Below, one piece after another: positions 777 to 15,952 of a DNA stretch of 64,000 bases. Each line of letters begins with the position of its first letter. Positions within the stretch are counted from its first letter, which is position 1. Below the pieces are notes generated by a model. The model did not search any database. It saw only the letters and a list, made by a program, of their open reading frames with translations, and was not told the DNA's origin. This stretch comes from Gammaproteobacteria bacterium (GTDB lineage: Bacteria; Pseudomonadota; Gammaproteobacteria; JACCXJ01): the NCBI GenBank assembly GCA_050740695.1, contig JBOIDR010000002.1, positions 3,307 through 67,306 on the forward strand, written 5' to 3'. The translations under genes and the position numbers were made by a program.

Positions 777-3209
777 ATGGCGGCAAAAGCCTATAAGATA
801 GCGGTCATCGGTGCCGGCCCGGCGGGACTGAGCGCGGCTGCGCGGGCCGCCGAGGTCGGGGTTTCGCACGTCCTCCTGGAGGCCGCGCCACACCTCTCCA
901 ATACCATCTATCGCTATCAGAAGGGCAAGCTGGTAATGGCGGAGCCCACCGTCCTGCCCTTGCGCAGCAGCATCGGTTTCGAAGCCGGCTCGCGCGAGCG
1001 CGTGCTGTCGGTGTGGGATGAGGCCAAAGAACGGCTGCGCGTCAATGTGCGGCATGGGGCCGAGGTCGCGGTCGTCGGGGGGGCACCAGGCAACTTCAGC
1101 GTGAGCCTCACCGGCGGCGAGGTCGTGAACGCCGAGTTCGTGGTGCTGGCAACCGGCCTGCAAGGCAACTTGCGCAAGCTCGGTGTGCCCGGGGAAAACC
1201 TGCCCTTCGTGCAATATCAGCTCGACGACCCGGACGAATACGAGAACGAGACCATCGTCGTGGTCGGGGCCGGGGACTCCGCCATCGAGAACGCCGTCGC
1301 GCTGTCCGCGCACAACAAGGTTGTCGTTATCAACCGCCGTGATGATTTCGACAAGGCAAAAGAAGGCAATCGCAACGGAATCGAGCGGGCCATCCAGGAC
1401 GGCGTCATCGAGTGCCTCTATAACACCGCCCCGGTGCGGGTCGAGGCGGCCTCCGGCCGGAACGGGAAACCGGGTGTCCTGGTCGTCAAGACGGCGAGCG
1501 GCGAGGTGGCACTGGACTGCGATCGCGTCATCGCGCGCCTAGGCGCCATGCCGCCCCGGAAGTTCGTCGAGTCCTGCGGGATCGAGTTTCCCAACGATGA
1601 CCCGAACGCCGTGCCGGCCGTCAGCGCCCAATATGAATCCAATGTCCCGGGCCTTTACATCATCGGTGCGCTGGCCGGTTATCCGCTCATCAAGCAGGCC
1701 ATGAACCAAGGCTATGAGGTGGTCGAGTTCATCGACGGCCGGGCCATCGAGCCGGCCGACGAACCGGTGTTGCGCGACAAGTTCCGCGCCGTGGTCGAGA
1801 TCCGCAGCGTGGCCTCGGCCCTGGAAGTCATCAAGAAGAACGTCCCGGTCCTATCGGGCCTGACCACCTTGCAGTTGCGCGAGTTTCTGCTCGACAGCGC
1901 GATCCGGGCGCCGAAACGCGGCGAGGTCCTGTTCGAGCGCAATGATTACTCGGATAGCTTCTTTTCGATCGTGCGCGGCGGGGTCGATATCCATATCGAT
2001 CCGAACGACGCCTCCAAGCGCGTGGCTTTGACGAAAGGCGACTTTTTCGGCGAGATGGGCCTCATCTCCGGACGCCGCCGTAACGCCACGGTGACGGCGG
2101 GTGAGCGTTGCATCTTGATCGAGACACCGCGGCGTTCGATGAACAAGCTGATCAATTCGGTGGCCTCGGTCAAGGGTTTCATCGACGGCACCTTCCTGCG
2201 CCGCGCGATTCAATCGCAGATCGCGCCGGAGCTGCCCGCCGAGGCCCTGCGGGAGGTGGTGGCGAGCGCCCGCATCGAGCGCTTCGATGCCGGCAAGGTG
2301 TTGTTCAAGGAGGGCGATCCCGGGGACAGCCTGCACTTGATCCGCAAGGGCTCGGTCACCGTGGCGCGCGACATCGGGGGGCGGGAACGGGTGCTCTCCT
2401 ATGTGGCGGCCGGCAATTATATTGGAGAGATGGCGCTTTTGACCGACAGCCCCCGTTCCGCGACGGTGCGTGCGGCGATCGAAACGGAGACCATCCGGCT
2501 CGAAGGCGCGGCCTTCAAGGCCCTGCTCTCGCGTTGGCCGGATATCCAGGCCAAGATGCAGAGCAAGGCCCGGGATCTCTTGGCGGGGCAGTCGGTCAAG
2601 GTGCAAGAGACCCCCGAGGGCGCGGGCGATCTCATCTCCTTCCTGGTGAATCAAGGGGTCGGCGAAGCAACGGACGTGTTGCTCATCGACGAGACCCTGT
2701 GTGTGCGGTGCGATCACTGCGAAAAGGCCTGCGCCGAAACCCATGGCGGTACCTCGCGCCTGGACCGCGAGGCCGGACCGACCTTCGCGTACATCCATGT
2801 TCCGACCTCGTGCCGACACTGCGAGCACCCGCACTGCATGAAGGACTGCCCGCCGGATGCCCTGCGCCGGGCACCCAATGGCGAGGTCATTATCCTGGAC
2901 AGTTGCATCGGTTGCGGGAATTGCGAGACCAATTGCCCCTATGGCGTCATCCAGATGGCGGTGAAGGAAGAGCCGAAGCCCGTGAATCTCTTGTCGTGGT
3001 TCTTGTTCGGCAAAGGCAGGGCGCCCGGAGAGGAGATCTCCGCCCATCACGATGCCGGGGCAGCGAAGATAGCCACCAAGTGCGATATGTGTAAGGACCT
3101 GGCCGGGGGTCCCGCCTGCGTGCGGGCCTGTCCCACGGGCGCGGCGATACGCGTGAGCCCGGAACAGTTCCTGACGGTGACGCGCGGCACGACTCTCGAC
3201 AGGTCCTAG
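777..3209 (+). CDS. Multidomain redox protein. It has an N-terminal FAD/NAD(P)-binding pyridine nucleotide-disulfide oxidoreductase domain, two cyclic-nucleotide-binding (cNMP/CAP-like) domains, and C-terminal tandem 4Fe-4S ferredoxin-type dicluster domains.
   Basis: A GxGxxG Rossmann motif (VIGAGPAGLSAA) near the N-terminus, with a second dinucleotide motif VVGAGDSAIE. Two cNMP-binding signatures: FGEMGLISGRRRNATVTA and GEMALLTDSPRSATVRA. Four Cys clusters of CxxCxxCxxxC(P) type: CVRCDHCEKAC, CRHCEHPHCMKDCP, CIGCGNCETNCP, and CDMCKD...CVRACP. Confidence 0.7.
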   Translation: MAAKAYKIAVIGAGPAGLSAAARAAEVGVSHVLLEAAPHLSNTIYRYQKGKLVMAEPTVLPLRSSIGFEAGSRERVLSVWDEAKERLRVNVRHGAEVAVVGGAPGNFSVSLTGGEVVNAEFVVLATGLQGNLRKLGVPGENLPFVQYQLDDPDEYENETIVVVGAGDSAIENAVALSAHNKVVVINRRDDFDKAKEGNRNGIERAIQDGVIECLYNTAPVRVEAASGRNGKPGVLVVKTASGEVALDCDRVIARLGAMPPRKFVESCGIEFPNDDPNAVPAVSAQYESNVPGLYIIGALAGYPLIKQAMNQGYEVVEFIDGRAIEPADEPVLRDKFRAVVEIRSVASALEVIKKNVPVLSGLTTLQLREFLLDSAIRAPKRGEVLFERNDYSDSFFSIVRGGVDIHIDPNDASKRVALTKGDFFGEMGLISGRRRNATVTAGERCILIETPRRSMNKLINSVASVKGFIDGTFLRRAIQSQIAPELPAEALREVVASARIERFDAGKVLFKEGDPGDSLHLIRKGSVTVARDIGGRERVLSYVAAGNYIGEMALLTDSPRSATVRAAIETETIRLEGAAFKALLSRWPDIQAKMQSKARDLLAGQSVKVQETPEGAGDLISFLVNQGVGEATDVLLIDETLCVRCDHCEKACAETHGGTSRLDREAGPTFAYIHVPTSCRHCEHPHCMKDCPPDALRRAPNGEVIILDSCIGCGNCETNCPYGVIQMAVKEEPKPVNLLSWFLFGKGRAPGEEISAHHDAGAAKIATKCDMCKDLAGGPACVRACPTGAAIRVSPEQFLTVTRGTTLDRS

Positions 3210-3229: not shown

Positions 3230-4150
3230 GTGCACGAGTCGTTTCTGGCTTACCGCAAGTTCTTGTATCTCAAGCTCGGCTTGGGGCTCATCGTGCTCTC
3301 GATCCTGGCCTACGCGCTGCACGATCCGCCCCACGGCCCGAACGGGGGGACGTGGCTGGGCTATACCCTGGGCACCATCGGTGCCGGTCTCATTATCTGG
3401 CTGCTCTGGTACGGGGTCCGCAAGCGCCAGTATCACTCGAAGCTCGGCCAGGTGTCCGGGTGGCTGTCGGGCCATGTGTATCTCGGGTCGGCACTCTTGG
3501 TCGTCGCCACCCTGCATGCTGCATTCAAATTTGGCTGGAACGTGCATACCTTGAGTTACGTGCTCATGATCATGGTCATCGTGAGCGGTGCCTACGGGAT
3601 TTTTACCTATGTCCGGTATCCCACGCGCCTGACGGACAACAAGGGCGGCATGGCGATCGACGCCATGCTGAAGGAGATCGGCGATCTGGACGGGCAATGC
3701 CTCCGGATCGCGGCGGAGATGGGTGACAAGGTCCATCAGATGATCCTGCGCTCCATCGAACGCACTTCTTTCGGAAGGACTCCGTGGCGCGATGCGATGG
3801 GCGGTGTGGGCCAGGGGCTCGAGGACCTCGCCCGTGAGATCAAGTCCATCGCCGGTGACGCCCCGACACAGGCGCCGCTGCCGGCCGCCGCCGCGCCGGC
3901 CGCGGCCGGCGAGTCCACGGTGTACTTCGTGGCCGATCAATTCGCCAGTCTCCGCGACCGCGCCCAGGCCGCGCTGGGCCACCGCCTGCTCGACCTCATC
4001 ACCAGCAAAAAGGCCCTGGTGATCCGGGTGCAGCGCGATATCGTCTACCGCAAATTACTCAATTCCTGGCTTTATCTCCACCTGCCCTTGTCTATTGCGC
4101 TGCTCGCGGCCCTGACCGTTCACGTGGTCACGGTCTTCTTCTACTGGTAA
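3230..4150 (+). CDS. Integral membrane protein, hypothetical, with about six predicted TM helices.
   Basis: Several long hydrophobic stretches (LGLGLIVLSILAYAL, IGAGLIIWLLWYGV, ALLVVATL, LMIMVIVSGAYGIF, LPLSIALLAALTVHVV). GTG start 20 nt after the upstream stop. Same strand and tightly packed with its neighbours. Confidence 0.5.
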   Translation: MHESFLAYRKFLYLKLGLGLIVLSILAYALHDPPHGPNGGTWLGYTLGTIGAGLIIWLLWYGVRKRQYHSKLGQVSGWLSGHVYLGSALLVVATLHAAFKFGWNVHTLSYVLMIMVIVSGAYGIFTYVRYPTRLTDNKGGMAIDAMLKEIGDLDGQCLRIAAEMGDKVHQMILRSIERTSFGRTPWRDAMGGVGQGLEDLAREIKSIAGDAPTQAPLPAAAAPAAAGESTVYFVADQFASLRDRAQAALGHRLLDLITSKKALVIRVQRDIVYRKLLNSWLYLHLPLSIALLAALTVHVVTVFFYW

Positions 4151-4159
4151 GCGCCGTCG

Positions 4160-6046
4160 ATGCGTTGCCTGTTACGCGCCGTCGTCCGGAGGAGTCGAGG
4201 TGTCGTCTCCCATCAGGACCGAGGGTTCGAAGGCGAGCATCTCACCATCGGGCGGTCGACGGACCAGGACCTGGAGCTTCCGGACCTGCGCGTGGCCCTG
4301 CACCATGCCACGGTGGTCGCGGCGGGCGCCGGCCGTTTCGTGATCCAGTCGGCGGTGCCCTCCGGGATCCGTCACAACGACGAGCCCGTCCAATCCGCCT
4401 TCCTGGAAGTGGGCGATCAGGTGAGCATCGGCGATCACCGCATCACCGTGCGGCCTCCGGAGGGCGCTCATGAGCTCTGCCTGGAGATCGCGCAGGTGCG
4501 TGCCGATCCCGGCCAGGAGGTCGAGAAGCGCGTCGCGTCGGCCTCGGGCAGCGGCCCGGAAAAGGGCCTGCGCCTGGGCGTGCGCGGCTGGTCCTGGATC
4601 CTCGGCATGGCGATCCTCACGCTGTTCTTCGTCGTGCCGCTCGTCGCTCGCCAGTCGGAGGCGATCCAGGGGTTCCTGCGCGGGGTCATCCCTGGCGTGA
4701 GCGATCACGCGTGGAGCACCGGGGGGCTCACGGAGGGCCATCGGTATTTCGGCGACGACTGCAACAAGTGCCACGAACGGGCCTTCGTCTCGGTACGCGC
4801 GAGCGCCTGCGTCGAATGCCACAAGGACCAGCCGCATCACTTCGATGTCGAGCGTTTCAAGGTCCCGGCCCTCGCCGACAAGCAATGCGCCGCTTGCCAT
4901 AAAGAGCACGGCGGGGCGCCGGCCCTGACCCGGCAGGACGAGGGCCTGTGTCTCGACTGCCACCGCGATATGCAGGAGACGGCGGCGGATTCGAAGCTCC
5001 TGGACATCCGCGGGGGCTTCGCGGAGGACCACCCGGAGTTTCGCGCCACCTTCGTCACCCACACGGACGGAAAAGACCGGTCCGAGCGCATCGAAATCGA
5101 CCGGCGCATTGTCCCGAAGGAGCGCTCCAACCTGTTCTTCCCCCACAAGACCCATCTCGACAAGACCGGGGTCCAGGGGCCCGATGGCAAGGTGGTGCTG
5201 AGCTGCGCGAGCTGCCACGTCCCCGAACCAGGGGGACGGCTTATGGCGCCCATCCGCTTCGAGCAGCATTGCCATCGCTGCCACCAGCTCACCTTTGAGA
5301 TCGACGATCCGAAGCGCGAGGTGCCTCACGGCCATGTCGGTCGGGTGCTCGACGGCCTCGAGGCCTATTACGGCCTGCGTACCCTGGAACGGGCCGATAT
5401 CGATACCGGCGAGCCGGAGGTCCTGTCCCGGCGCCGCCCCGGGCGGCAGGCGGTCCCGCCGGAGCGCTCCGAGGGCCTGGAGAGTGCGGCGCGGCGGGCG
5501 CGGCAAGCGGGCAAGGAGCTTTTCGAGTATCGCGCCTGCGCGACCTGCCACCAGGTCGATGAGAAGGCCCAATCGGTCTTCGGGTGGGACATCGTGCCGG
5601 TGCGCATCGCCCGCACCTGGTACCCCAAGGCCGGCTTCGACCACGGCCGGCACGCCACGGTGGCCTGCGCGCGCTGCCATGGCTTCCGACCCGCCGATTG
5701 CGCCGCCTCTACATCGCCCCCCTCTACATCAAGTAGGGCGGTGGCGGATCCCGAGAAGGGCGCGGCCGATTGCAACAAGGGCGTGGCCGATTCCGAGAAG
5801 AGCGAGGATGTCCTCATCACCGGTATCGCGACCTGCCGGGAGTGCCATGGCGATCCCGGGGCAAAGGATCGGGTTCAGTCGACCTGCATCTTCTGCCACG
5901 ATTTCCATATCTCGCCGAGGTTCGCGATGGATGGCCGGGCGCGGACCAGACCGGGCGACCTAGCCCCCCCTCGGCAGGCGGCGGCGGTGCCGTCGGCCGA
6001 TCTCACGGATCTCCCGGCCGGCCAGGCGCGGATGGGGCAGCAGTGA
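4160..6046 (+). CDS. FHA-domain protein fused, through one TM helix, to a decaheme c-type cytochrome.
   Basis: The N-terminal roughly 110 aa match the FHA fold pattern (GRSTDQDLELPDLRVALHHATVV...DEPV...FLEVGDQVSIGDHRITV). There is one hydrophobic helix (WSWILGMAILTLFFVVPLVA). Ten CxxCH motifs follow: CNKCH, CVECH, CAACH, CLDCH, CASCH, CHRCH, CATCH, CARCH, CRECH, CIFCH. Confidence 0.65.
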   Translation: MRCLLRAVVRRSRGVVSHQDRGFEGEHLTIGRSTDQDLELPDLRVALHHATVVAAGAGRFVIQSAVPSGIRHNDEPVQSAFLEVGDQVSIGDHRITVRPPEGAHELCLEIAQVRADPGQEVEKRVASASGSGPEKGLRLGVRGWSWILGMAILTLFFVVPLVARQSEAIQGFLRGVIPGVSDHAWSTGGLTEGHRYFGDDCNKCHERAFVSVRASACVECHKDQPHHFDVERFKVPALADKQCAACHKEHGGAPALTRQDEGLCLDCHRDMQETAADSKLLDIRGGFAEDHPEFRATFVTHTDGKDRSERIEIDRRIVPKERSNLFFPHKTHLDKTGVQGPDGKVVLSCASCHVPEPGGRLMAPIRFEQHCHRCHQLTFEIDDPKREVPHGHVGRVLDGLEAYYGLRTLERADIDTGEPEVLSRRRPGRQAVPPERSEGLESAARRARQAGKELFEYRACATCHQVDEKAQSVFGWDIVPVRIARTWYPKAGFDHGRHATVACARCHGFRPADCAASTSPPSTSSRAVADPEKGAADCNKGVADSEKSEDVLITGIATCRECHGDPGAKDRVQSTCIFCHDFHISPRFAMDGRARTRPGDLAPPRQAAAVPSADLTDLPAGQARMGQQ

Positions 6047-6218
6047 TGGCGCCGTGTTGGCACGGAACCGGCCTTCCGGGGTATTTTCTGGTGCCGGTGA
6101 ATCTTTCGCGCTGGCGTGCTAACTTAGGGTGGGTGTCAGGGATCGAGCCGGACGGGCTCGAATGGGTTCCCGTATGGCGAATCGGCACTTGTTTCGGGTC
6201 TCGGGTCGAACTCGGTCG

Positions 6219-7013
6219 ATGAAGACTGCGGCGGATCCGCGCCTGTCGCCCGGGCTCAAGTGCCGGATAGACGCGAGTATCGCGACCGACACCGGTTGCC
6301 AGCGCGATCACAATGAGGACCACATCGACTTCTTCGCGGCCGATGACCCCGTGGTACGGAGCAGCAAGGGTGCCCTTGCGGTGGTCGCCGACGGTATGGG
6401 AGGGCACCTCGCGGGCGGTCTGGCGAGCGAACTGGCCGTCCAGGTCGCGCGCCGCACCTACTACCAGGAACCGGGAGAAGGCCGCAAGGCCCTAGAGACC
6501 GCCCTGCAGAGGGCGAACCGGGAGATCTATGAGCTGTCGCTCACGGACGAGGCCTATCATGGCATGGGGACCACGTGCACGGCGCTGGTGTTGACGGGAT
6601 CGCTCGCCCACTGCGCCCACGTCGGCGACAGCCGCCTGTATCTCATCCGCGACGGTCAGATCCGTCTGATGACGGAAGACCACTCCCTGGTTCGGGAGAT
6701 GGTCAAGGCCGGGATCCTGAGCCCCGAGCAGGCGCGCTCTCACCCCAACAGAAACGTGATCTCCAGGGCCTTGGGGGTGCGTCCCAGTGTCGATCTTTTC
6801 TTCTGGCAGGACCCCATGGAGCTCTGCGACGGCGATACCTTCGTCCTGTGTTCCGATGGCCTGCACGACCCCGTGCGCGAAGACGAGATCCTTGGTGTGT
6901 GCGTGGCAGAGGCGTCCGAGGCGGCGTGCCGGAGTCTGGTAGACCTGGCGAAACAGCGCGGCGGCCACGACAACATCAGCGTGGGGGTCTTCCGGGTGAG
7001 AGCCGAGGAGTGA
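6219..7013 (+). CDS. PP2C-family (PPM) Ser/Thr protein phosphatase.
   Basis: PPM motifs are present: DTGCQRDHNEDH, VVADGMGGH, GTTCTALV, LCSDGL, GGHDNISV. The start was chosen at MKTAADP; the ORF can also open at position 6129. Confidence 0.75.
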   Translation: MKTAADPRLSPGLKCRIDASIATDTGCQRDHNEDHIDFFAADDPVVRSSKGALAVVADGMGGHLAGGLASELAVQVARRTYYQEPGEGRKALETALQRANREIYELSLTDEAYHGMGTTCTALVLTGSLAHCAHVGDSRLYLIRDGQIRLMTEDHSLVREMVKAGILSPEQARSHPNRNVISRALGVRPSVDLFFWQDPMELCDGDTFVLCSDGLHDPVREDEILGVCVAEASEAACRSLVDLAKQRGGHDNISVGVFRVRAEE

Positions 7014-7048: not shown

Positions 7049-10000
7049 ATGATCAACGAAGTGATCGCCAACTGCTACCAGATCGTCGAGAAGATCGGCG
7101 AGGGTGGGATGGGGGAGGTGTTCCGGGGTGTGGACATCAACCTCGATCGCGATGTCGCCATCAAGGTCATGCGTACCGAGCTCGCCCGCCGGCCCGAGAT
7201 CCTCCAGCGTTTCCGCAAGGAAGCGGTCGTCCTAGCCAAGCTCAACCATTCCAATATCGCGACCCTCTACAACTTCATCCATGACGGTAACAACTATTAC
7301 ATGGTCATGGAGTTCGCGCCGGGTCAGACCCTCGACGTCCTCGTCGCGGATTGCGTCGGGGGGCTGCCGTGGCGATACGCGCTGGAGCTGTTCATGGATG
7401 CGCTCCGGGCCATCGACCACGCCCATAAGCAGGGCATCATCCACCGTGACATCAAGCCGGCCAACATGATGGTCAGCAAGCGCGATACCCTGAAGGTTCT
7501 GGACTTCGGGATCGCGCGCGTCCTGGGAGAATCCGGATTCACCAAGGCGGGCATCGTGGTCGGAACGACCAAGTACATGTCCCCCGAACAGATCCTCGGC
7601 CGCAGCATCGATACGCGTTCGGATATCTACGCGCTCGGGATCGTGCTCTACAAGATGCTCACCGGGCATGTGCCCTTCGAGGGCCTGGGTGAGTTCGAGC
7701 TCATGAAGGCGCAGGTCGAGGACCGCGCCCTGCCGGTACGCCAGATCATTCCGGATCTGCCCGAAGCGGTTGACGAGGCCATAATGCGGTCCCTGGAGAA
7801 GGCGCCGGAAGACCGATTTCAGCGGGCCTCCGAATTCATTGCCGCATTGGTGCCGATACTGCGCGACGATGTTGCCGACTGGGAGTCGCACCGCAGAGAC
7901 TTGCGCGACCAGGAGTCGGGCCCGCGTGCGCCTCGGCAGCGGGGCGGGCAGAAACGCCCGGTGGTCATCGACGGCAACCTGGCGCGCAAGCAGGCCGAGA
8001 TGCCCACTTCGAGCAGCCGCAGCGGGCTCATGGACGATGCCTATCAGCCACCTCCCCGTCAGGCCTCCCCCCGTCAGATGCCGACCCGTCAGTCCACCCC
8101 GGCCCCGAGGCTCGAGGTGGTTCGCACGCCGGTGCCGGCGAGCGCGTCCCAGGTGCCGACGCAGGCTTTGGACACGCGGGTCGCAGCGGAGATCACACCT
8201 CCGCTGCGACCACGCGTCCCGGTGACGGCCGAGGCCGGGGCCACCACGGTCGATGAGCCGTCCATCTTTGGGACCCGGGTCGGGACGAAGGTCATGGGGA
8301 CCGGGAAACCCGTCGCACCGCCCACACCCTCGTGGCGTGCCCGGATCGGTGAGGGGTTGCGGCCGGTCTTGGGATGGCTGTCGCGGCTCGGATGGCGGCG
8401 CGTCGCGGGTGCCGCGCTGGGACTCGCCGTACTGGCGGGCGTATCGCTGGGGGTCCGTGAGCTGATGCGACCTCCCGATCCTGAGGAGATCGCGCTGTGG
8501 CTCGCACAGGCGAAGCAGGCGCTGGCGGCGGGGAAGGTTGGGCCCGGAGACACGGCCGTGTCTCTGGCACAGGATGTCTTGAAATGGGTACCGGACCACG
8601 GCGAAGCGAGAGACGTCGTGCTCGCGGCGGTCGCCCGTCTCGTGAGCGCCGGCCAGTCGGCGCTCCAACAGGGCAAACTGAGCGACGCGAAAGCGCGGCT
8701 TGCCGAGGCGGAGACTTTGGTCAGGGACCCCGCGCTGGAGAACCCTAAGCTGGACAAGCGCAGTGTGGCGGCGCTCGCGGGCGGTATCGCCGCCGAGGAG
8801 TCGCGGCGCACCGCGATCGAAAGAGCAGAACGGGAGAAAGCGGAACGGGAACGCCGTATCGGCGAGCTGATCGCGGCCTCGCGGGCGGCGCTTGCGTCGG
8901 AGAAGTTCGCGGAGGCCGCGGCGCGAGCCCAGGAGGTCTTGGGCCTGGTGCCGGACCAGGCCGAGGCGCGCCAGATCCTCGACGATGCGCTCCAAGGGGC
9001 GCTCAAGGGCATGGAAGAGGCGCTCGCCCGCGGCGATCTTGCAGCGGTCGGCGCCCGTGAAGCGGAGGCGCGTGCCCTGGTGCAGCAGTACGGTCTACCC
9101 GAGGCGAAGCTCAACGACTTGGCCGCACGGCGCGCTAGAGAAGCGCAGCGACAGGCCGAGGAAGAGGAACGCCTGGCGGGGCAGAAGCGCGCCGTGGAAG
9201 AGCGGACGGCGCGTGTCCGGGGGCTGCTGGACAAGGCGCAGGCGGCCGCCGAGGCGGGCCGCTGGACGGTCCCGCCCGAGGACAGCGCCGTCGGGTATGC
9301 GGGGGCGGTCCTGGGCCTCGAACCCAAGAGCACCGAGGCCTTGCGGGTGATCGGCGATGCCGTCGATGCCGTGGTCGATGAGGCCGATGGTGCGCTCGGG
9401 GCCGGTGATATGGCAACGGCCAAGGCCCGGCGTGACGCGGCCGCGAAACTGGCCTCCACCTACCAGGTGCCGAGCCAGAGCATCGCGAAGCTGTCCGAGC
9501 GGATCACCGAGGCCGAACGTCTAGCCCGCGAGGCAGAGGACGAGGCCGCGCGCCTTGCCCGCGAGACGCAAGAGAAGAAAGCGGCGCTGGTGGCCCGCGA
9601 AGCGAAAATCGAGGATCTGATCGAAAAGGCCACTCGGGCCATCGCCCAGGACCGCTTGACGGCGCCCGCGAACGACAACGCCATGAAACACGTACGCGAT
9701 CTGGTCAGCCTGGATCCGGGGAACGTAGAGGCGCAGGGCCTTGCTGCCGGGGTGCGCGACCGTTACATTGCACTGGCCGACAAGGCCGTGGCCGATGCCC
9801 ACTTCACAAAGGCTCGTGATCTCGAGCGCCAGGCGGGCGAGATCGCCTCCGAGTTTCGCCTGAGTGCCGACCCGATCCGTGATCTCGCGGCCCGGATCGC
9901 GGCCGCCGAGGACAGCAATGCGAGCGCCGTGATCGAGTCGCGCGAAAAAGCCGAGCGCGACAGGGCGGCAGAAGAAAGGCTGACGCAGCAGAAGGCTGAG

Positions 10001-10540
10001 GAGGCTCGGGCGGAACGCGACAGGCTGGAGCGAGAAAAGCTCGCCCGGCAGAATGCGGAGCAGGGGGAGGCCCGCCGCCGCGAGCAGCAGCTCGCGGATC
10101 TACGCAAGAAGGCGAGGTCGGCGCTGGCCGGCAACCGGCTGACCCGTCCCCGGGGTAACAACGCCGTGGAGCTTGCCGCCCAGATGCTTACCCTGGATAA
10201 AGGCCGCAACGAAGGCCTTCAGATCCTCCAAGAGGTGGTAGGCCGCTATGTGGCGATGGGTGAGCTGGCCGTCGCCGGCGAGGATCTCGCGGTGGCGGAC
10301 GATCATTATCGGGCCGCCGAGCGCGTCGTGAAGGATTACCGGTTGCCGGACGCGGAACTTCGTCGGCTGGATCGGCGTCTTACGGCCAAACGACAAGAGA
10401 TCGCCGAAGTGGAACGGCGTGCGCGTGATAAGCGGACGCCGATCGTCTCGTCGCCGCCCGCGGAGGTTTCGCCCCCGGCGGATCCGCCGAAGAAAGCGGA
10501 CGGGGGGAGGTCGAGAGTATTCGTGCCCCCTTCGTTCTAG
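7049..10540 (+). CDS. Hanks-type Ser/Thr protein kinase. It has one TM segment and a very long C-terminal extracytoplasmic Ala/Glu/Arg-rich coiled-coil region, with roughly 38-aa repeats, that ends in FVPPSF.
   Basis: Kinase subdomains: GxGxxG-like EKIGEGGMGEV, VAIK, HRDIKPANM, DFGIA, SPEQ. A hydrophobic segment (AALGLAVLAGVSLGV) at about aa 450. Repeats of the RLTxPxxNNA...L.L.PG..EA..L...V..RY type occur at least three times. Confidence 0.8.
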   Translation: MINEVIANCYQIVEKIGEGGMGEVFRGVDINLDRDVAIKVMRTELARRPEILQRFRKEAVVLAKLNHSNIATLYNFIHDGNNYYMVMEFAPGQTLDVLVADCVGGLPWRYALELFMDALRAIDHAHKQGIIHRDIKPANMMVSKRDTLKVLDFGIARVLGESGFTKAGIVVGTTKYMSPEQILGRSIDTRSDIYALGIVLYKMLTGHVPFEGLGEFELMKAQVEDRALPVRQIIPDLPEAVDEAIMRSLEKAPEDRFQRASEFIAALVPILRDDVADWESHRRDLRDQESGPRAPRQRGGQKRPVVIDGNLARKQAEMPTSSSRSGLMDDAYQPPPRQASPRQMPTRQSTPAPRLEVVRTPVPASASQVPTQALDTRVAAEITPPLRPRVPVTAEAGATTVDEPSIFGTRVGTKVMGTGKPVAPPTPSWRARIGEGLRPVLGWLSRLGWRRVAGAALGLAVLAGVSLGVRELMRPPDPEEIALWLAQAKQALAAGKVGPGDTAVSLAQDVLKWVPDHGEARDVVLAAVARLVSAGQSALQQGKLSDAKARLAEAETLVRDPALENPKLDKRSVAALAGGIAAEESRRTAIERAEREKAERERRIGELIAASRAALASEKFAEAAARAQEVLGLVPDQAEARQILDDALQGALKGMEEALARGDLAAVGAREAEARALVQQYGLPEAKLNDLAARRAREAQRQAEEEERLAGQKRAVEERTARVRGLLDKAQAAAEAGRWTVPPEDSAVGYAGAVLGLEPKSTEALRVIGDAVDAVVDEADGALGAGDMATAKARRDAAAKLASTYQVPSQSIAKLSERITEAERLAREAEDEAARLARETQEKKAALVAREAKIEDLIEKATRAIAQDRLTAPANDNAMKHVRDLVSLDPGNVEAQGLAAGVRDRYIALADKAVADAHFTKARDLERQAGEIASEFRLSADPIRDLAARIAAAEDSNASAVIESREKAERDRAAEERLTQQKAEEARAERDRLEREKLARQNAEQGEARRREQQLADLRKKARSALAGNRLTRPRGNNAVELAAQMLTLDKGRNEGLQILQEVVGRYVAMGELAVAGEDLAVADDHYRAAERVVKDYRLPDAELRRLDRRLTAKRQEIAEVERRARDKRTPIVSSPPAEVSPPADPPKKADGGRSRVFVPPSF

Positions 10541-10620
10541 ATTATTACAGAACTTCAAACTGTACGAGACGAATTCGACGATGTAGAAGTCCCTTCTCTC
10601 GCGGGGGGAGACAGGTTAGG

Positions 10621-11457
10621 ATGAGGGAATTTCCAATGTGTTTCAATAGATTCAGCTTGTTTCGAGGTCTCTGCATGACCATTATGTCAATTAATGTCCG
10701 GCGCGGAATGCTCGCGTGGGTATTCGTGCTCGCGGCTTACCCGGGGCTCTCCGCGGGCGCCGAACAGAAGCGCCCGGCTCCATCCGCTCGCATTGCAGCG
10801 ATTCTCGTCCAGGCGGAGCGCGCCCTGGCGGAGGATCGGCTCACCCTGCCCTCGGGCCATAATGCCGTCTCCTATGCCCAAAAGGTGCTGGACCTCGCGC
10901 CCGGCCACCCCGCAGCCCAAGGGATCCTTCGCGCCGTTGTCACACGCTACGGGCTCATCGCCGGTGCCGCTCTGGACCGGGCCGAGGCGCTGAGGCGTCA
11001 GGAACTAGCCAGGGCGCAGGCGTATCGATCGCGAGGGGAGGGCGTGGCGCATCGGTTCAATCTTAGCACGGTGCCCTTGAGTGCCGTCGCGGAGCGCATG
11101 GATGGCGTGAAGGCTCGTCCCCATGGGACGAGCGTGGTGGATAATTCAACGATCATTATCGGGCAACGCCAGCCCCCGGCGGACCGAGTGCTCGACCGAC
11201 TGGTCGGCAAGTACCTATATGAGAGTGAGATCGCACTGGAGGGTGGCCGGGTGCACGATGCCCGGCGCTACTGGGAGGTCGCCGCTCAGATCGCGATGGA
11301 TCACCGGGTTTCGAATCCGGGCCTCGACGGGCTCGAGCGCCGTGTCGCCGCGGCCGAGCAGGAACGGGACGAGGGCCGGGTCCGGGCGCGTGAGGACGCC
11401 CGCCTTTCTGCGCAGGGCCGGTTGCTCAAGGCCGTATTCATTCCGCCCAGCTTTTAG
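10621..11457 (+). CDS. Secreted or periplasmic repeat-domain protein. It shares the repeat module and the C-terminal FIPPSF motif with the upstream kinase. The start may be internal (MSINV...).
   Basis: Signal-peptide-like MLAWVFVLAAYPGLSAGA. RLTLPSGHNAVSYAQKVLDLAPGHPAAQGILRAVVTRYG matches the kinase repeats. The protein ends ...VFIPPSF, and the kinase ends ...VFVPPSF. Confidence 0.5.
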   Translation: MREFPMCFNRFSLFRGLCMTIMSINVRRGMLAWVFVLAAYPGLSAGAEQKRPAPSARIAAILVQAERALAEDRLTLPSGHNAVSYAQKVLDLAPGHPAAQGILRAVVTRYGLIAGAALDRAEALRRQELARAQAYRSRGEGVAHRFNLSTVPLSAVAERMDGVKARPHGTSVVDNSTIIIGQRQPPADRVLDRLVGKYLYESEIALEGGRVHDARRYWEVAAQIAMDHRVSNPGLDGLERRVAAAEQERDEGRVRAREDARLSAQGRLLKAVFIPPSF

Positions 11458-12510
<1,053 letters not shown>

Positions 12511-12552
12511 GAGGTTGTGAAAAACCGTCGCGAGCGACTGCACGGGCGTGGG

Positions 12553-13962
<1,410 letters not shown>

Positions 13963-13976
13963 GATTTCGAGCCATA

Positions 13977-15020
13977 TCAGAGAGTGGGCAGGCGGACCGT
14001 GAAGCGTGTCTCGCCCGGTTTGGAGGTGAATTCGATGAGCCCTCCGTGGCCGTAGATGAGGGCCTGGGCGATCGAGAGTCCGAGGCCGGTGCCGCCGACC
14101 CGGCCGCTGACCATGGGGTAGAAGATATCGTCGCGGACTTCCGCGGGAACGCCCGGCCCATCGTCGATGATGTCGATGCGGATCACCGTCCGGTAGCGGT
14201 TGACGCCGATGGTGACCTGGCGATCGGCGCGCGTCCTCAACAGCACCTTTCCAATCCCGCACAGGGCCTGCCCGGCGTTGCGCACCACATTGAGGAAGGC
14301 CTGGATCAACTGGTCGCGGTCAGCGAGCAGCGCCGGCAGGCTCGGATCGTAGTCCCGCTCCACCGTCAAGGTGGGCGGACCCTCGGCGCTCACCAAGGTG
14401 CGCACGTGCTCCAGGACCTCGTGGATGTTGATGGTGCGTTTGTGCGGACGGTAGTTCGGCACCAGCATGCGGTCCACGAGACCGCGCAGCCGGTCCACCT
14501 CGTCGACGATGAGGCGGGTGTACTCGGCGTATTCGGGCAGCTCGCTTTCGAGCAGTTGTGCCGCTCCGCGGATCCCGCCCAGCGGGTTCTTGACCTCATG
14601 GGCCATGCCCTTGAGCATGGTGCGAATGGCGTTCTGCTGGTTGGCCACGGCCTCGTCGCGCAGCACGCGACGGTAACGATCGGCATTGCTCATCTCGACC
14701 AGGATGTGCGATACCCGGGTGCCCTGGAACAGCGGGGCGGCCGTGAAATCGAGTGAGATCCTCGTGCCCCAGGGGGTCGTAAGGTCCACACCCCATTCGG
14801 TCACCGCCTGTCCACTGGCCTGCACGCGTTCCAGGGCAGTGGCGAGCGCGGTGTCCCGAAACAGTTCGTCGGGGGCACGCCCGAGCACCTTGCGCGCGCT
14901 CGCCGACAAGAGATGCTCGCCGGCGGCGTTGATGAGCGTTAGTCTGGCCTCGTGATCGAACAGCAGCACGGCGGTGCAGAGATTATCGACCAACCAGCCC
15001 GCCTGAGCGTGCTCGATCAT
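13977..15020 (-). CDS. glnL: Nitrogen regulation sensor histidine kinase NtrB (NR-II).
   Basis: PAS-like N-terminus, H-box HEVKNPLGGIRGAAQLL, and HATPase motifs (DDGPGVP, GGTGLGL). It lies immediately upstream of ntrC on the same strand. Confidence 0.85.
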   Translation of the reverse strand: MIEHAQAGWLVDNLCTAVLLFDHEARLTLINAAGEHLLSASARKVLGRAPDELFRDTALATALERVQASGQAVTEWGVDLTTPWGTRISLDFTAAPLFQGTRVSHILVEMSNADRYRRVLRDEAVANQQNAIRTMLKGMAHEVKNPLGGIRGAAQLLESELPEYAEYTRLIVDEVDRLRGLVDRMLVPNYRPHKRTINIHEVLEHVRTLVSAEGPPTLTVERDYDPSLPALLADRDQLIQAFLNVVRNAGQALCGIGKVLLRTRADRQVTIGVNRYRTVIRIDIIDDGPGVPAEVRDDIFYPMVSGRVGGTGLGLSIAQALIYGHGGLIEFTSKPGETRFTVRLPTL

Positions 15021-15232
15021 ACCCCCTCTCCCTACAAAGCACCACGCCGGTGCGTGGCCTTACGCACCATGATGCTCGCCTCTAGGATTAGATAGAGTAC
15101 CAAATCGTGGGGTTACGTTGGCCCGGGCGGCTCATGCCGGTGCGGCGTTAACGTGTAGGCGGCAAAATCCACACCACGCGATGGGAGTGTGCCCCACCAC
15201 GACGCCGGTTGGGACCGGATTAAAGCGTTCGG

Positions 15233-15952
15233 TTACGGCATGCCGGGGGCGCCAGGCGGCACTGCCGGGGTTGCGGGAGGCGCCCCAGGGGGTGCTGCCG
15301 GGGCTCCTGGGGCTACGGAGATGCGCTTCATGTGGAAGACCGAGGGCGGTGATTCACCCAGCACCTTGCCATCCGCATCCACGATGCGCGCCTGCAGAGT
15401 GTAGGTATTGCGATCGAGGTTGGTCACCGTGAAGCTGGTGGCGGCGATCGGCTCACCCAGTGCTTGCCCGTTGAGCAAAACCACAAGCTTGTGGCCCAGC
15501 GTGCCCTGCAGCGCCGGCGCCACAGCGACCTCGATGGACACGTTGCCGGAGTTGTCCCACACCGTGCCGTCATTGGGCGGGTTGGCGACCGCGATCTTGT
15601 CGTATCCTGCGAAGCGAGGCGCAGCCGGGTCCGAGGGCGCCGGATCACCGGCCGGTGTGGGTGCCGGTGCCGGGGCGGCCGGCGCCTTGGGGATCCGGAT
15701 CACCTGTGCATTCGGTCGGGGCCGATCGGAATACTGGGTGTTGCCGTCGGGATCGACCCATCGGTAGACCTCCGCGGCGGGCGAGACCGCGCTCCAAAGC
15801 CCTAGACACAAGACCAGCCAATGCACGCAGGGAGCATAGACAAGCGCGCGGCGCGGGGCAAGGCTCGCCCCGGCGTGGTGGGCGCCCGTTGCCGGCCCCC
15901 CCGTGCCGCGGAAGGCTCGCATCGGAGAGGTGTGCGCACCGATGATGTGCAT
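15233..15952 (-). CDS. DUF4124-family secreted protein with a Pro/Ala-rich linker. The exact start is uncertain.
   Basis: Signal-like LVLCLGLWSAVSPAAEVYRWVDPDGNTQYSD is a typical DUF4124 N-terminus. A P/A-rich spacer is followed by a C-terminal domain. Confidence 0.5.
   Translation of the reverse strand: MHIIGAHTSPMRAFRGTGGPATGAHHAGASLAPRRALVYAPCVHWLVLCLGLWSAVSPAAEVYRWVDPDGNTQYSDRPRPNAQVIRIPKAPAAPAPAPTPAGDPAPSDPAAPRFAGYDKIAVANPPNDGTVWDNSGNVSIEVAVAPALQGTLGHKLVVLLNGQALGEPIAATSFTVTNLDRNTYTLQARIVDADGKVLGESPPSVFHMKRISVAPGAPAAPPGAPPATPAVPPGAPGMP

Follow-up and report, generated by a model that had tools for sequence, protein, structure and literature searches.

What Gram-negative Hanks-type Ser/Thr kinases sense in the periplasm, and how they do so, is little understood. 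Among the described systems closest to the one reported here is PknS (XAC4127) of Xanthomonas citri, an 833-aa kinase with three tetratricopeptide repeats (TPRs) detectable by Pfam models, which signals to an extracytoplasmic function (ECF) sigma factor and whose periplasmic TPR region is required in vivo, its ligand being not known (PMC13147305). Another is the PpkA-PppA-Fha1 set of Pseudomonas type VI secretion, in which the genes for a kinase, a PP2C phosphatase and an FHA protein lie side by side. Here we analyse a 64-kb stretch of DNA (GenBank assembly GCA_050740695.1, contig JBOIDR010000002.1, positions 3,307-67,306; hereafter the window) from a metagenome-assembled genome (MAG) of a gammaproteobacterium, which encodes a Hanks kinase, termed K (7049-10540), and, adjoining it, a small secreted protein, termed S. 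A preliminary description had pointed out that the two proteins have a repeat and a C-terminal tail in common. They do indeed both end VF[VI]PPSF, as does no other open reading frame (ORF) of at least 60 aa in the window, and we consider it very probable that this tail is a functional recognition motif common to K and S.

The N-terminal part of K is a typical Hanks kinase domain (PF00069, E = 7.7e-53, 180 bits vs. a cutoff of 31.7, aa 10-257), with the catalytic motifs GEGGMGEV, VAIKV, HRDIKPAN, DFGIA and MSPE readable in the translation. A single transmembrane (TM) helix is predicted further on, the highest Kyte-Doolittle window (value 1.79) lying at aa 451-452, and since the basic segment RLGWRR precedes this helix, the positive-inside rule predicts that aa 471-1163 are periplasmic. 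In this ectodomain three copies of a repeat of about 38 aa had been described, with one further copy in S. All four quoted strings are present (K aa 738, 869 and 1030; S aa 73) and S has indeed one copy (aa 51-115); the pattern is real, but it is only the core of a unit of about 62 aa with the consensus I..LL.KA..ALA..RLT.P..DNAV..A..VL.L.P...EA...L...V.RY, and K carries not three but five such units, starting at aa 474, 597, 716, 847 and 1008 in a hidden Markov model (HMM) search and spaced 119-161 aa apart. Each unit opens a larger module, in which it is followed by a second, weakly conserved hairpin (...A..L...Y.LP...L..L..RI) and by a stretch rich in Ala, Glu and Arg; the spacers, putative coiled coils in the preliminary description, are as rich in these residues as had been claimed (fractions of A 0.22-0.27, E 0.12-0.17, R 0.11-0.15).

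The repeat clearly exceeds what a shuffled control can produce. When each of four copies (K units 3-5 and that of S) was left out and scored against an HMM of the other three, it obtained 29.5-53.0 bits, vs. 8-13 bits for the best scores in 2000 shuffled ectodomains. The two additional copies were found with HMMs built without the unit in question: unit 1 is matched at aa 484-532 with 21.3 bits (shuffle maximum 9.7), and unit 2 at aa 599-647 with 9.8 bits vs. the same maximum of 9.7, which is marginal in K alone. We count five units because the HMM finds both of these copies and unit 2 is confirmed in orthologues, its counterparts being detected in P0048, P0049, P0054 and P0058. Direct comparison of the K ectodomain with S by composition-adjusted BLASTP gives E = 6e-12 over 108 aa (34% identity), plus further significant segments; the K copy involved, and the most similar to S, is unit 4. 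The post-unit region of S aligns in BLASTP with the corresponding parts of K modules 4 and 5, and the second half of S, together with its tail, matches the end of K from aa 993, just before unit 5, onwards (174 aa, 26% identity). Since S thus aligns both with K module 4 and with the last 174 residues of K, it is a free-standing paralogue of the distal K ectodomain.

Analysis of the unit profile points to a diverged TPR in which 5 residues, RLTxP, have been inserted between the two helices, since profile positions 30-56 match the TPR consensus over helix B and the next turn (dnAvayarevLkLaPenaeA vs. DEAIEYYQKALELDPRSAEA), including the positions A20, A27 and P32. Searched against consensus TPR proteins, the profile gives E = 1e-41 for a 16-repeat design and 1.8e-13 for CTPR3, both values being summed over repeats of which each single stretch is weak (i-E of 0.2 or higher). 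Unit 2, which has the canonical spacing between TPR helices A and B, visible as a gap in the unit alignment, is the only one without the insertion, and the wide spacing of the units sets the whole apart from a canonical tandem array of 34-residue repeats. Pfam has no TPR match on K at E <= 1, and the sole one on S (TPR_2, E = 0.28, 11.9 bits vs. a cutoff of 27) lies outside the unit; relatives give partial TPR matches. Neither Pfam nor NCBIfam contains a model for the unit, the tail or S. As read from its sequence, K would combine a periplasmic sensor domain of the TPR type with a short linear motif at the C-terminus.

S most likely starts at Met19 of its longest ORF (nt 10675), since most orthologues and the NCBI annotation (260 aa, ACREXW_00510) begin there. 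The longest ORF adds 18 residues (10621-10674), MREFPMCFNRFSLFRGLC, upstream of the conserved start; this extension is shared by P0001 only and is probably not translated. In the unit of S the residues R73, L74, T75, P77, G79 and A82 are invariant among 21 sequences. The AlphaFold2 (AF2) model of S is all-alpha, with unit helices 54-70 and 82-92 at a predicted local distance difference test (pLDDT) above 90 and further helices at 97-145, 151-165, 186-207, 211-228 and 234-266; Foldseek finds no significant PDB neighbour of it. For the last 12 residues the model shows no structure and little confidence (tail pLDDT about 51-56), and such an undocked tail would fit a motif that folds only on a partner. 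With the S alignment we found only two GTDB species representatives, both uncultured gammaproteobacterial MAGs, and no cultured host.

Had the tail been absent from orthologues, its significance would have been doubtful; it is in fact among the best conserved parts of both proteins. All 19 full-length S orthologues, down to 39% identity, end (K)AVF[ILM]PP[SA]F, two of them deviating at one position (...IPPAL and ...VFLPAAF); K270, A271, V272, F273, P275, P276 and F278 are at least 90% conserved, placing the tail among the most conserved columns of the S family. All full-length K orthologues, down to 57% ectodomain identity, end [KR]VFVPPSF, with the variants PPMVPSF in the full-length orthologue P0058 and HVPVPPSF in the fragments P0056 and P0062. 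In both families the tail is as conserved as the unit core, while its codons vary synonymously, all four Pro codons being used, and it is under purifying selection in both. In K the tail follows a Pro-rich linker placed after the last module, and the tails of relatives are likewise preceded by Pro- and Lys/Arg-rich linkers. Serine is encoded by TCN in the K lineage and by AGC in the S lineage, and because the codons for the same tail differ, the shared tail is not a recent DNA copy. The bias of the ectodomain towards Ala, Glu and Arg might still invite the view that tail and repeat are a functionless product of chance, low complexity or recent duplication. This view is practically excluded by the shuffled controls, the composition-adjusted BLAST E-value (6e-12), the conservation among orthologues down to about 40% identity, and the codon differences.

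The tail does not resemble a known sorting signal. No NCBIfam sorting-domain model (PEP-CTERM, GlyGly-CTERM, LPXTG, MYXO-CTERM and similar) matches K, S or their relatives, and the usual layout of a motif, a hydrophobic TM segment and a basic cluster is lacking, as the tail ends the protein and nothing follows. With the beta-signal of outer-membrane proteins (OMPs) it shares the C-terminal aromatic residue, Phe being last in both families; the alternation of hydrophobic residues in a last barrel strand, with a hydrophobic or aromatic residue at position -2, is missing, this place being taken by Pro or Gly, and S is all-alpha in the AF2 model. Full-text literature searches for the tail strings gave nothing relevant.

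To learn how widely the unit and the tail are distributed, we searched the unit HMM against 1.84 billion cluster representatives and obtained 6716 matches at E <= 1e-3, 1621 at E <= 1e-10 and 171 at E <= 1e-30, with up to 20 units per protein. The unit is fused to a variety of N-terminal partners, of which Hanks kinases are the commonest, others being caspase-type peptidases, TIR, AAA_22 (with an ExeA-like N-terminus) and PEGA domains, and some of its relatives have FGE-sulfatase-like C-termini (...GFRLVR). Phenylalanine makes up about 4% of the residues of bacterial proteins; among the 148 best unit matches it is the C-terminal residue in 47, which is a lower bound, many matches being gene fragments. 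Most of these tails consist of basic residues followed by [FI]-G-[TS]-F, typically ...R-x-[FI]-G-[TS]-F: of the 47, 33 have Gly at -2, 29 have Thr or Ser at -1 and 22 have Arg at -5. The PPSF tail of the window is a rarer variant of an ending that recurs on many proteins with the same unit (it is seen e.g. in P0089 and P0124). The architectures of these unit proteins (P0074-P0221) recall the conflict or "antigen sensor" proteins described earlier (eLife 2020;9:e52696, bioRxiv 10.1101/2023.09.22.558884).

Tail types change in concert. In all eight loci where neighbouring genes could be compared, they share the tail type, namely PPSF in the window, L005, L002, L004, L034 and L021, and GTF in L001 and L049, as would be predicted by a common, lineage-specific receptor. 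In L001 (8001-12357, plus strand) the kinase P0070 is called as ending ...HYAGG, while the next ORF (11650-12357) adds a unit and the RMFGTF tail; this is probably a single gene divided by a frameshift or an assembly error. L004 also encodes, on the minus strand (8529-9905) and 2.4 kb from a kinase/S pair ending FVPPSF and FIPPAF, an FHA-TM-caspase protein (Peptidase_C14) whose ...FFFVPPSP end directly follows the caspase domain, which suggests that the tail may be a portable module on its own. A second, solitary S-like paralogue of about 250 aa (...EFKAVF[IL]PPAF) is transcribed divergently from a barrel gene of type B (see below) in L006 and L014, and in L014 it lies about 5 kb from a kinase like that of the window.

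As to the suggested role of the tail in docking or sorting both proteins alike, the shared module and the shared, conserved C-terminal motif bear it out, whereas the choice between docking and sorting is still a matter of inference. The suggestion gains support because the tail is under purifying selection, changes in concert with its neighbours and recurs on unit proteins. The main alternative to an external partner is that the TPR-like units serve as receptor, the tail of one K or S molecule entering a unit of another, as the EEVD-COOH end of Hsp70/Hsp90 enters the TPR carboxylate clamp of Hop; the resulting K-S heteromers or head-to-tail chains would set the oligomeric state of the kinase and hence its activity. 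Binding of free C-terminal peptides is a well-known role of TPRs (Hop, CHIP, PEX5), and the unit is TPR-like; very different proteins carry the tail and the unit together, S has one of each, and in the unit the strongest conservation falls on a surface loop whose invariant Arg, Thr, Pro, Gly and Asn would suit a carboxylate clamp. However, PPSF- and GTF-type proteins have the same unit signature despite wholly different tails, and no co-variation is visible; the few unit positions that differ between the two types (33, 35-36 and 52) do so in a manner inseparable from phylogeny. AF2, moreover, leaves the tail of S undocked from its own unit, and such binding would leave unexplained the recurrence of a particular neighbouring gene and its correspondence with the tail type. 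We regard this mechanism as rather unlikely.

That neighbouring gene encodes a member of a family of signal-peptide proteins of 270-350 aa ending ...NLTF, ...NISF or ...SYLF, for which no Pfam or NCBIfam model gives a match. AF2 predicts the member ACREXW_15485 to be a beta-barrel of about 12 long strands (predicted template modelling score 0.73), and Foldseek relates this model to omptin and porin barrels (E = 1e-9, template modelling score 0.44-0.62). We also weighed an odd number of strands, which might have pointed to the tail completing the barrel as a further strand, and rejected it, the model being best read as 12-stranded. The family is divided into two distantly related subtypes, A and B, type A scoring E of about 1e-6 against the type-B profile, and ACREXW_15485 belongs to the latter. 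Among the 13 loci found via the kinase, S or the unit, the barrel gene adjoins tail-bearing genes in six (L001, L002, L004, L006, L008 and L050), as it does in L014, with varying gene order and orientation. A metagenome search with the barrel as query gave 33 loci, mostly of 1-4 kb and too short to judge; in six of the 33 a K- or S-like gene adjoins the barrel gene or lies not far from it. The subtype corresponds to the tail: type B is found with PP[SA]F tails in all nine loci with a readable tail (a tenth, L030, is left uncounted, its S-like unit ORF running off the contig), and type A with G-type tails (GTF or GPGF) in all three. A type-B barrel was accordingly predicted for the MAG of the window itself and was found, on another contig, as ACREXW_15485 (P0264, 41% identity over the full length); the MAGs ACREXX, ACT4QB and ACREXU, which have K or S orthologues, also encode a barrel of this type. 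In L006, L012 and L014 the barrel gene stands beside an S8 peptidase gene, with RTX repeats in L012, and choice-of-anchor L genes lie nearby in L006 and L014.

On the strength of the neighbourhood linkage across rearranged loci, the subtype match and the borne-out prediction, the barrel is the best lead on the partner. We hold it to be a serious possibility, somewhat short of an even chance, that K and S dock through the tail to one partner, most likely the type-B outer-membrane barrel. More doubtful, if attractive, is the general scheme of a tail-barrel specificity pair, in which PP[SA]F would go with type B and [FI]-G-[TS]-F with type A, and into which kinases, periplasmic caspase-type proteases and small soluble paralogues would plug. 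Several observations weigh against such a role of the barrel. The gene is absent from the whole window (tblastn and HMM searches) and from beside the closest syntenic locus, L005, so that in the lineage of the window the barrel and K/S are linked only by belonging to the same genome, and ACREXW_15485 adjoins an S8/RTX peptidase gene, not a tail-bearing one. About half of the loci with adequate flanks have no barrel. The 12 loci with a matching tail and barrel type are not independent because all PPSF/type-B loci come from related soil Gammaproteobacteria, and the match may stem from shared ancestry; common descent can also account for the matching tails within loci. Finally, the barrel could be a partner of the helical modules rather than of the tail.

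Two further readings treat the tail as a signal of another kind. It might be a tag for a periplasmic PDZ protease of the DegS, DegP, Prc or CtpA type, mimicking the Phe-COOH ends of OMPs, so that proteolysis would regulate K and S together, or the two would report on the state of the envelope. PDZ proteases read ends of this sort (DegS binds YxF, Prc non-polar tails); a terminal Phe after hydrophobic residues on a flexible linker would fit, and the neighbouring barrels themselves end ...NLTF or ...SYLF. Position -2 is, however, Pro or Gly instead of the aromatic residue of YxF, the gene tables of the loci examined contain no PDZ or tail-specific protease gene, and concerted switching of tails within loci would be unexpected for a housekeeping protease, which makes this reading improbable. 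Still less probable is that the tail is an export or threading signal and the barrel a dedicated translocator by which S and the K tip would cross, or enter, the outer membrane and reach the cell surface. The neighbourhood and the subtype match speak for it, the strands of the barrel are unusually long and omptin-like, and choice-of-anchor and S8 peptidase genes occur nearby in L006, L012 and L014; but with its roughly 300 residues and about 12 strands the modelled barrel is on the small side for a channel that conducts proteins. K, moreover, remains tied to the inner membrane, and known sorting-signal models give no match.

Taking the type-B barrel as the partner, the system could work as follows. 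K would be an inner-membrane kinase whose periplasmic part of about 690 residues consists of five all-helical modules, a Pro-rich linker and a free ...VFVPPSF-COOH; S would be its secreted paralogue with one unit, two hairpins, a charged helix and the same tail. Acting as a short linear motif, the tail would bring the far ends of both proteins to the same partner, a dedicated type-B barrel, here ACREXW_15485. Docking would let K bridge the periplasm to the outer membrane and act as an envelope-spanning receptor with a tethered tip, with S as a co-receptor, adaptor or competitor at the same site, and the products of the neighbouring PP2C and FHA genes would carry the output.

The genomic neighborhood of K and S is presented in Table 1. 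The PP2C gene (Pfam PP2C_2, 4.6e-17; NCBIfam Stp1_PP2C_phos, 1.8e-70, 237 bits, cutoff 230) probably starts downstream of nt 6129, and a PP2C gene directly 5' of the kinase is also found in L002, L004, L005 and L014. Adjacent FHA (4160-6046), PP2C (6129-7013) and Hanks kinase (7049-10540) genes make this a Ser/Thr kinase-PP2C-FHA triad. The FHA protein (Pfam FHA 1.4e-05, Cytochrome_C7 1.5e-09 and Paired_CXXCH), which has no PPSF tail, has its FHA domain at the N-terminus, followed by a TM helix and, on the periplasmic side, a multihaem cytochrome c that bears several CXXCH motifs; judging by these domains it is a phospho-threonine reader fused to a redox module, and it is likely to be a reader, or a target, of K phosphorylation. 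Related kinases are also flanked by FHA-TM-X proteins, e.g. FHA-TM-caspase in L004 and VWA-TM-FHA in L048. At the head of the gene run stands an 810-aa fusion of a pyridine-nucleotide-disulphide oxidoreductase with two cyclic-nucleotide (cNMP)-binding domains and a 4Fe-4S dicluster domain, which suggests a redox or cyclic-nucleotide input to the kinase operon. A promoter or terminator signal was sought between K and S and none was found. Downstream of S lie hemB and then, on the opposite strand, ntrC and ntrB; the order hemB, ntrC, ntrB, DUF4124 (window 11521-15949) is kept in L005 (6237-10501). The L005 kinase is only 57% identical to K, yet this downstream order is conserved, whereas the region 5' of PP2C is not.

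Table 1. Coordinates of the features of the K/S locus in the window (amino-acid numbers of S refer to the 278-aa ORF), and tails and barrel genes of related loci
Feature	Position	Strand	Remarks
cNMP-binding, FAD/NAD oxidoreductase and 4Fe-4S fusion	777-3209	+	heads the gene run
Membrane protein, no family assigned	3230-4150	+	
FHA, TM helix and multihaem cytochrome c protein	4160-6046	+	adjoins the PP2C gene on its 5' side
PP2C-type Ser/Thr phosphatase (Stp1/IreP-like)	6129-7013	+	first gene of the conserved PP2C-kinase-S cassette
K, 1163-aa Hanks kinase	7049-10540	+	MGH8562624.1
K, Hanks-type Ser/Thr kinase domain, aa 10-257, predicted cytoplasmic	7076-7819	+	Pfam Pkinase
K, single predicted TM helix, about aa 451-470	8399-8458	+	Kyte-Doolittle
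K, unit 1, aa 474-536	8468-8656	+	degenerate TPR-like; GKVGPGDTAV replaces RLTxPxxxNA
K, unit 2, aa 597-661	8837-9031	+	without the 5-residue RLTxP insertion
K, unit 3, aa 716-780	9194-9388	+	RWTVPPEDSAV; left-out score 29.5 bits, shuffle maximum 9.4
K, unit 4, aa 847-911	9587-9781	+	RLTAPANDNAM; left-out score 51.6 bits
K, unit 5, aa 1008-1072	10070-10264	+	RLTRPRGNNAV; left-out score 46.3 bits
K, Pro/Lys/Ala-rich low-complexity linker, about aa 1130-1156	10436-10516	+	TPIVSSPPAEVSPPADPPKKADGGRSR; read from the translation
K, C-terminal tail and stop codon	10517-10540	+	VFVPPSF
S, small secreted protein (longest ORF)	10621-11457	+	single TPR-like unit and tail
S, probable true start and Sec signal peptide	10675-10761	+	MTIMSINVRRGMLAWVFVLAAYPGLSAGA / EQ; hydrophobic core; cleavage site predicted by the AxA rule
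S, single TPR-like unit, aa 51-115	10771-10965	+	RLTLPSGHNAV; left-out score 53.0 bits
S, two copies of the second hairpin (about aa 116-165 and 186-245), then charged helix	10966-11433	+	
S, C-terminal tail and stop codon	11434-11457	+	VFIPPSF
L005, PP2C-K-S-hemB-ntrCB			syntenic with the window; tails VFVPPSF and VFLPPSF
L002, split kinase and S-like			...VFIPPSF; ...VFIPPAF
L004, kinase, S-like and FHA-TM-caspase			...TFVPPSF; ...VFIPPAF; ...FFFVPPSP
L034 and L021			PPSF/PPAF pairs
L001, 30%-identical kinase with six units, and neighbouring S-like			...RMFGTF; ...RLYGTF
L049, caspase with units, and convergent S-like			...RRLFGSF; ...RMFGTF
Barrel gene, L012	3186-4202		
Barrel gene, L004	7210-8271		
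Barrel gene, L008	4008-4940		
Barrel gene, L001	13414-14445		
Barrel gene, L050	9060-9866		

Three elements described here lie outside the curated families, namely a common TPR-like module with thousands of clusters, a travelling C-terminal motif and a small secreted paralogue, and to these we add a concrete candidate partner, an uncharacterised outer-membrane barrel. Module and tail are also present on caspase, TIR and other effector-type proteins, so that an answer could reach beyond kinases. Were the specificity pair true, it would amount to an undescribed, widespread envelope-spanning sensor complex of Gammaproteobacteria, in which eukaryote-like Ser/Thr phosphorylation, or protease effectors, would be coupled directly to an outer-membrane protein.

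Comparison with known systems places the parts of K and S as follows. The unit shares with the TPR motif (Pfam clan CL0020) the helix-turn-helix arrangement and matches its helix B and turn; it differs in the RLTxP insertion, in occurring once per module of 120-160 aa instead of in tandem 34-aa arrays, and in that K and S stay below threshold with every Pfam TPR model. Compared by architecture alone, K and PknS have in common the Hanks kinase, the TM helix, periplasmic TPRs and the predicted topology, whereas neither a C-terminal tail nor an S-type partner has been reported for PknS. The carboxylate clamp of Hop/CHIP with its EEVD-COOH ligand offers a parallel for a short conserved motif at the extreme C-terminus, borne on a flexible linker and combined with TPR-type repeats; it is, however, cytosolic and eukaryotic and its tail is acidic, whereas that of K and S is hydrophobic, ends with Phe and shows no unit-tail co-variation. 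The C-terminal Phe signals of OMPs (the beta-signal read by BAM, and YxF read by the DegS PDZ domain) likewise combine a terminal Phe with upstream hydrophobic residues in the periplasm, but here the -2 residue is Pro or Gly and the K/S-type carriers are all-alpha, as judged from the AF2 model of S. With PpkA-PppA-Fha1 the locus shares the adjacent kinase, PP2C and FHA genes and a single-pass membrane kinase; it differs in that the K ectodomain is made of TPR-like modules and not of VWA, and that the FHA protein is fused to a multihaem cytochrome, and no type VI secretion gene was noticed among the annotated ORFs near the locus, the rest of the window lying outside that look. Proteins of the TonB/TolA type, finally, have no sequence relationship to K, whose distal element is a 7-residue tail in place of a folded domain; they resemble it in the inner-membrane anchor, the long periplasmic spacer with a Pro-rich stretch and the contact with an outer-membrane barrel, hypothetical for K, that is proposed for the distal end.

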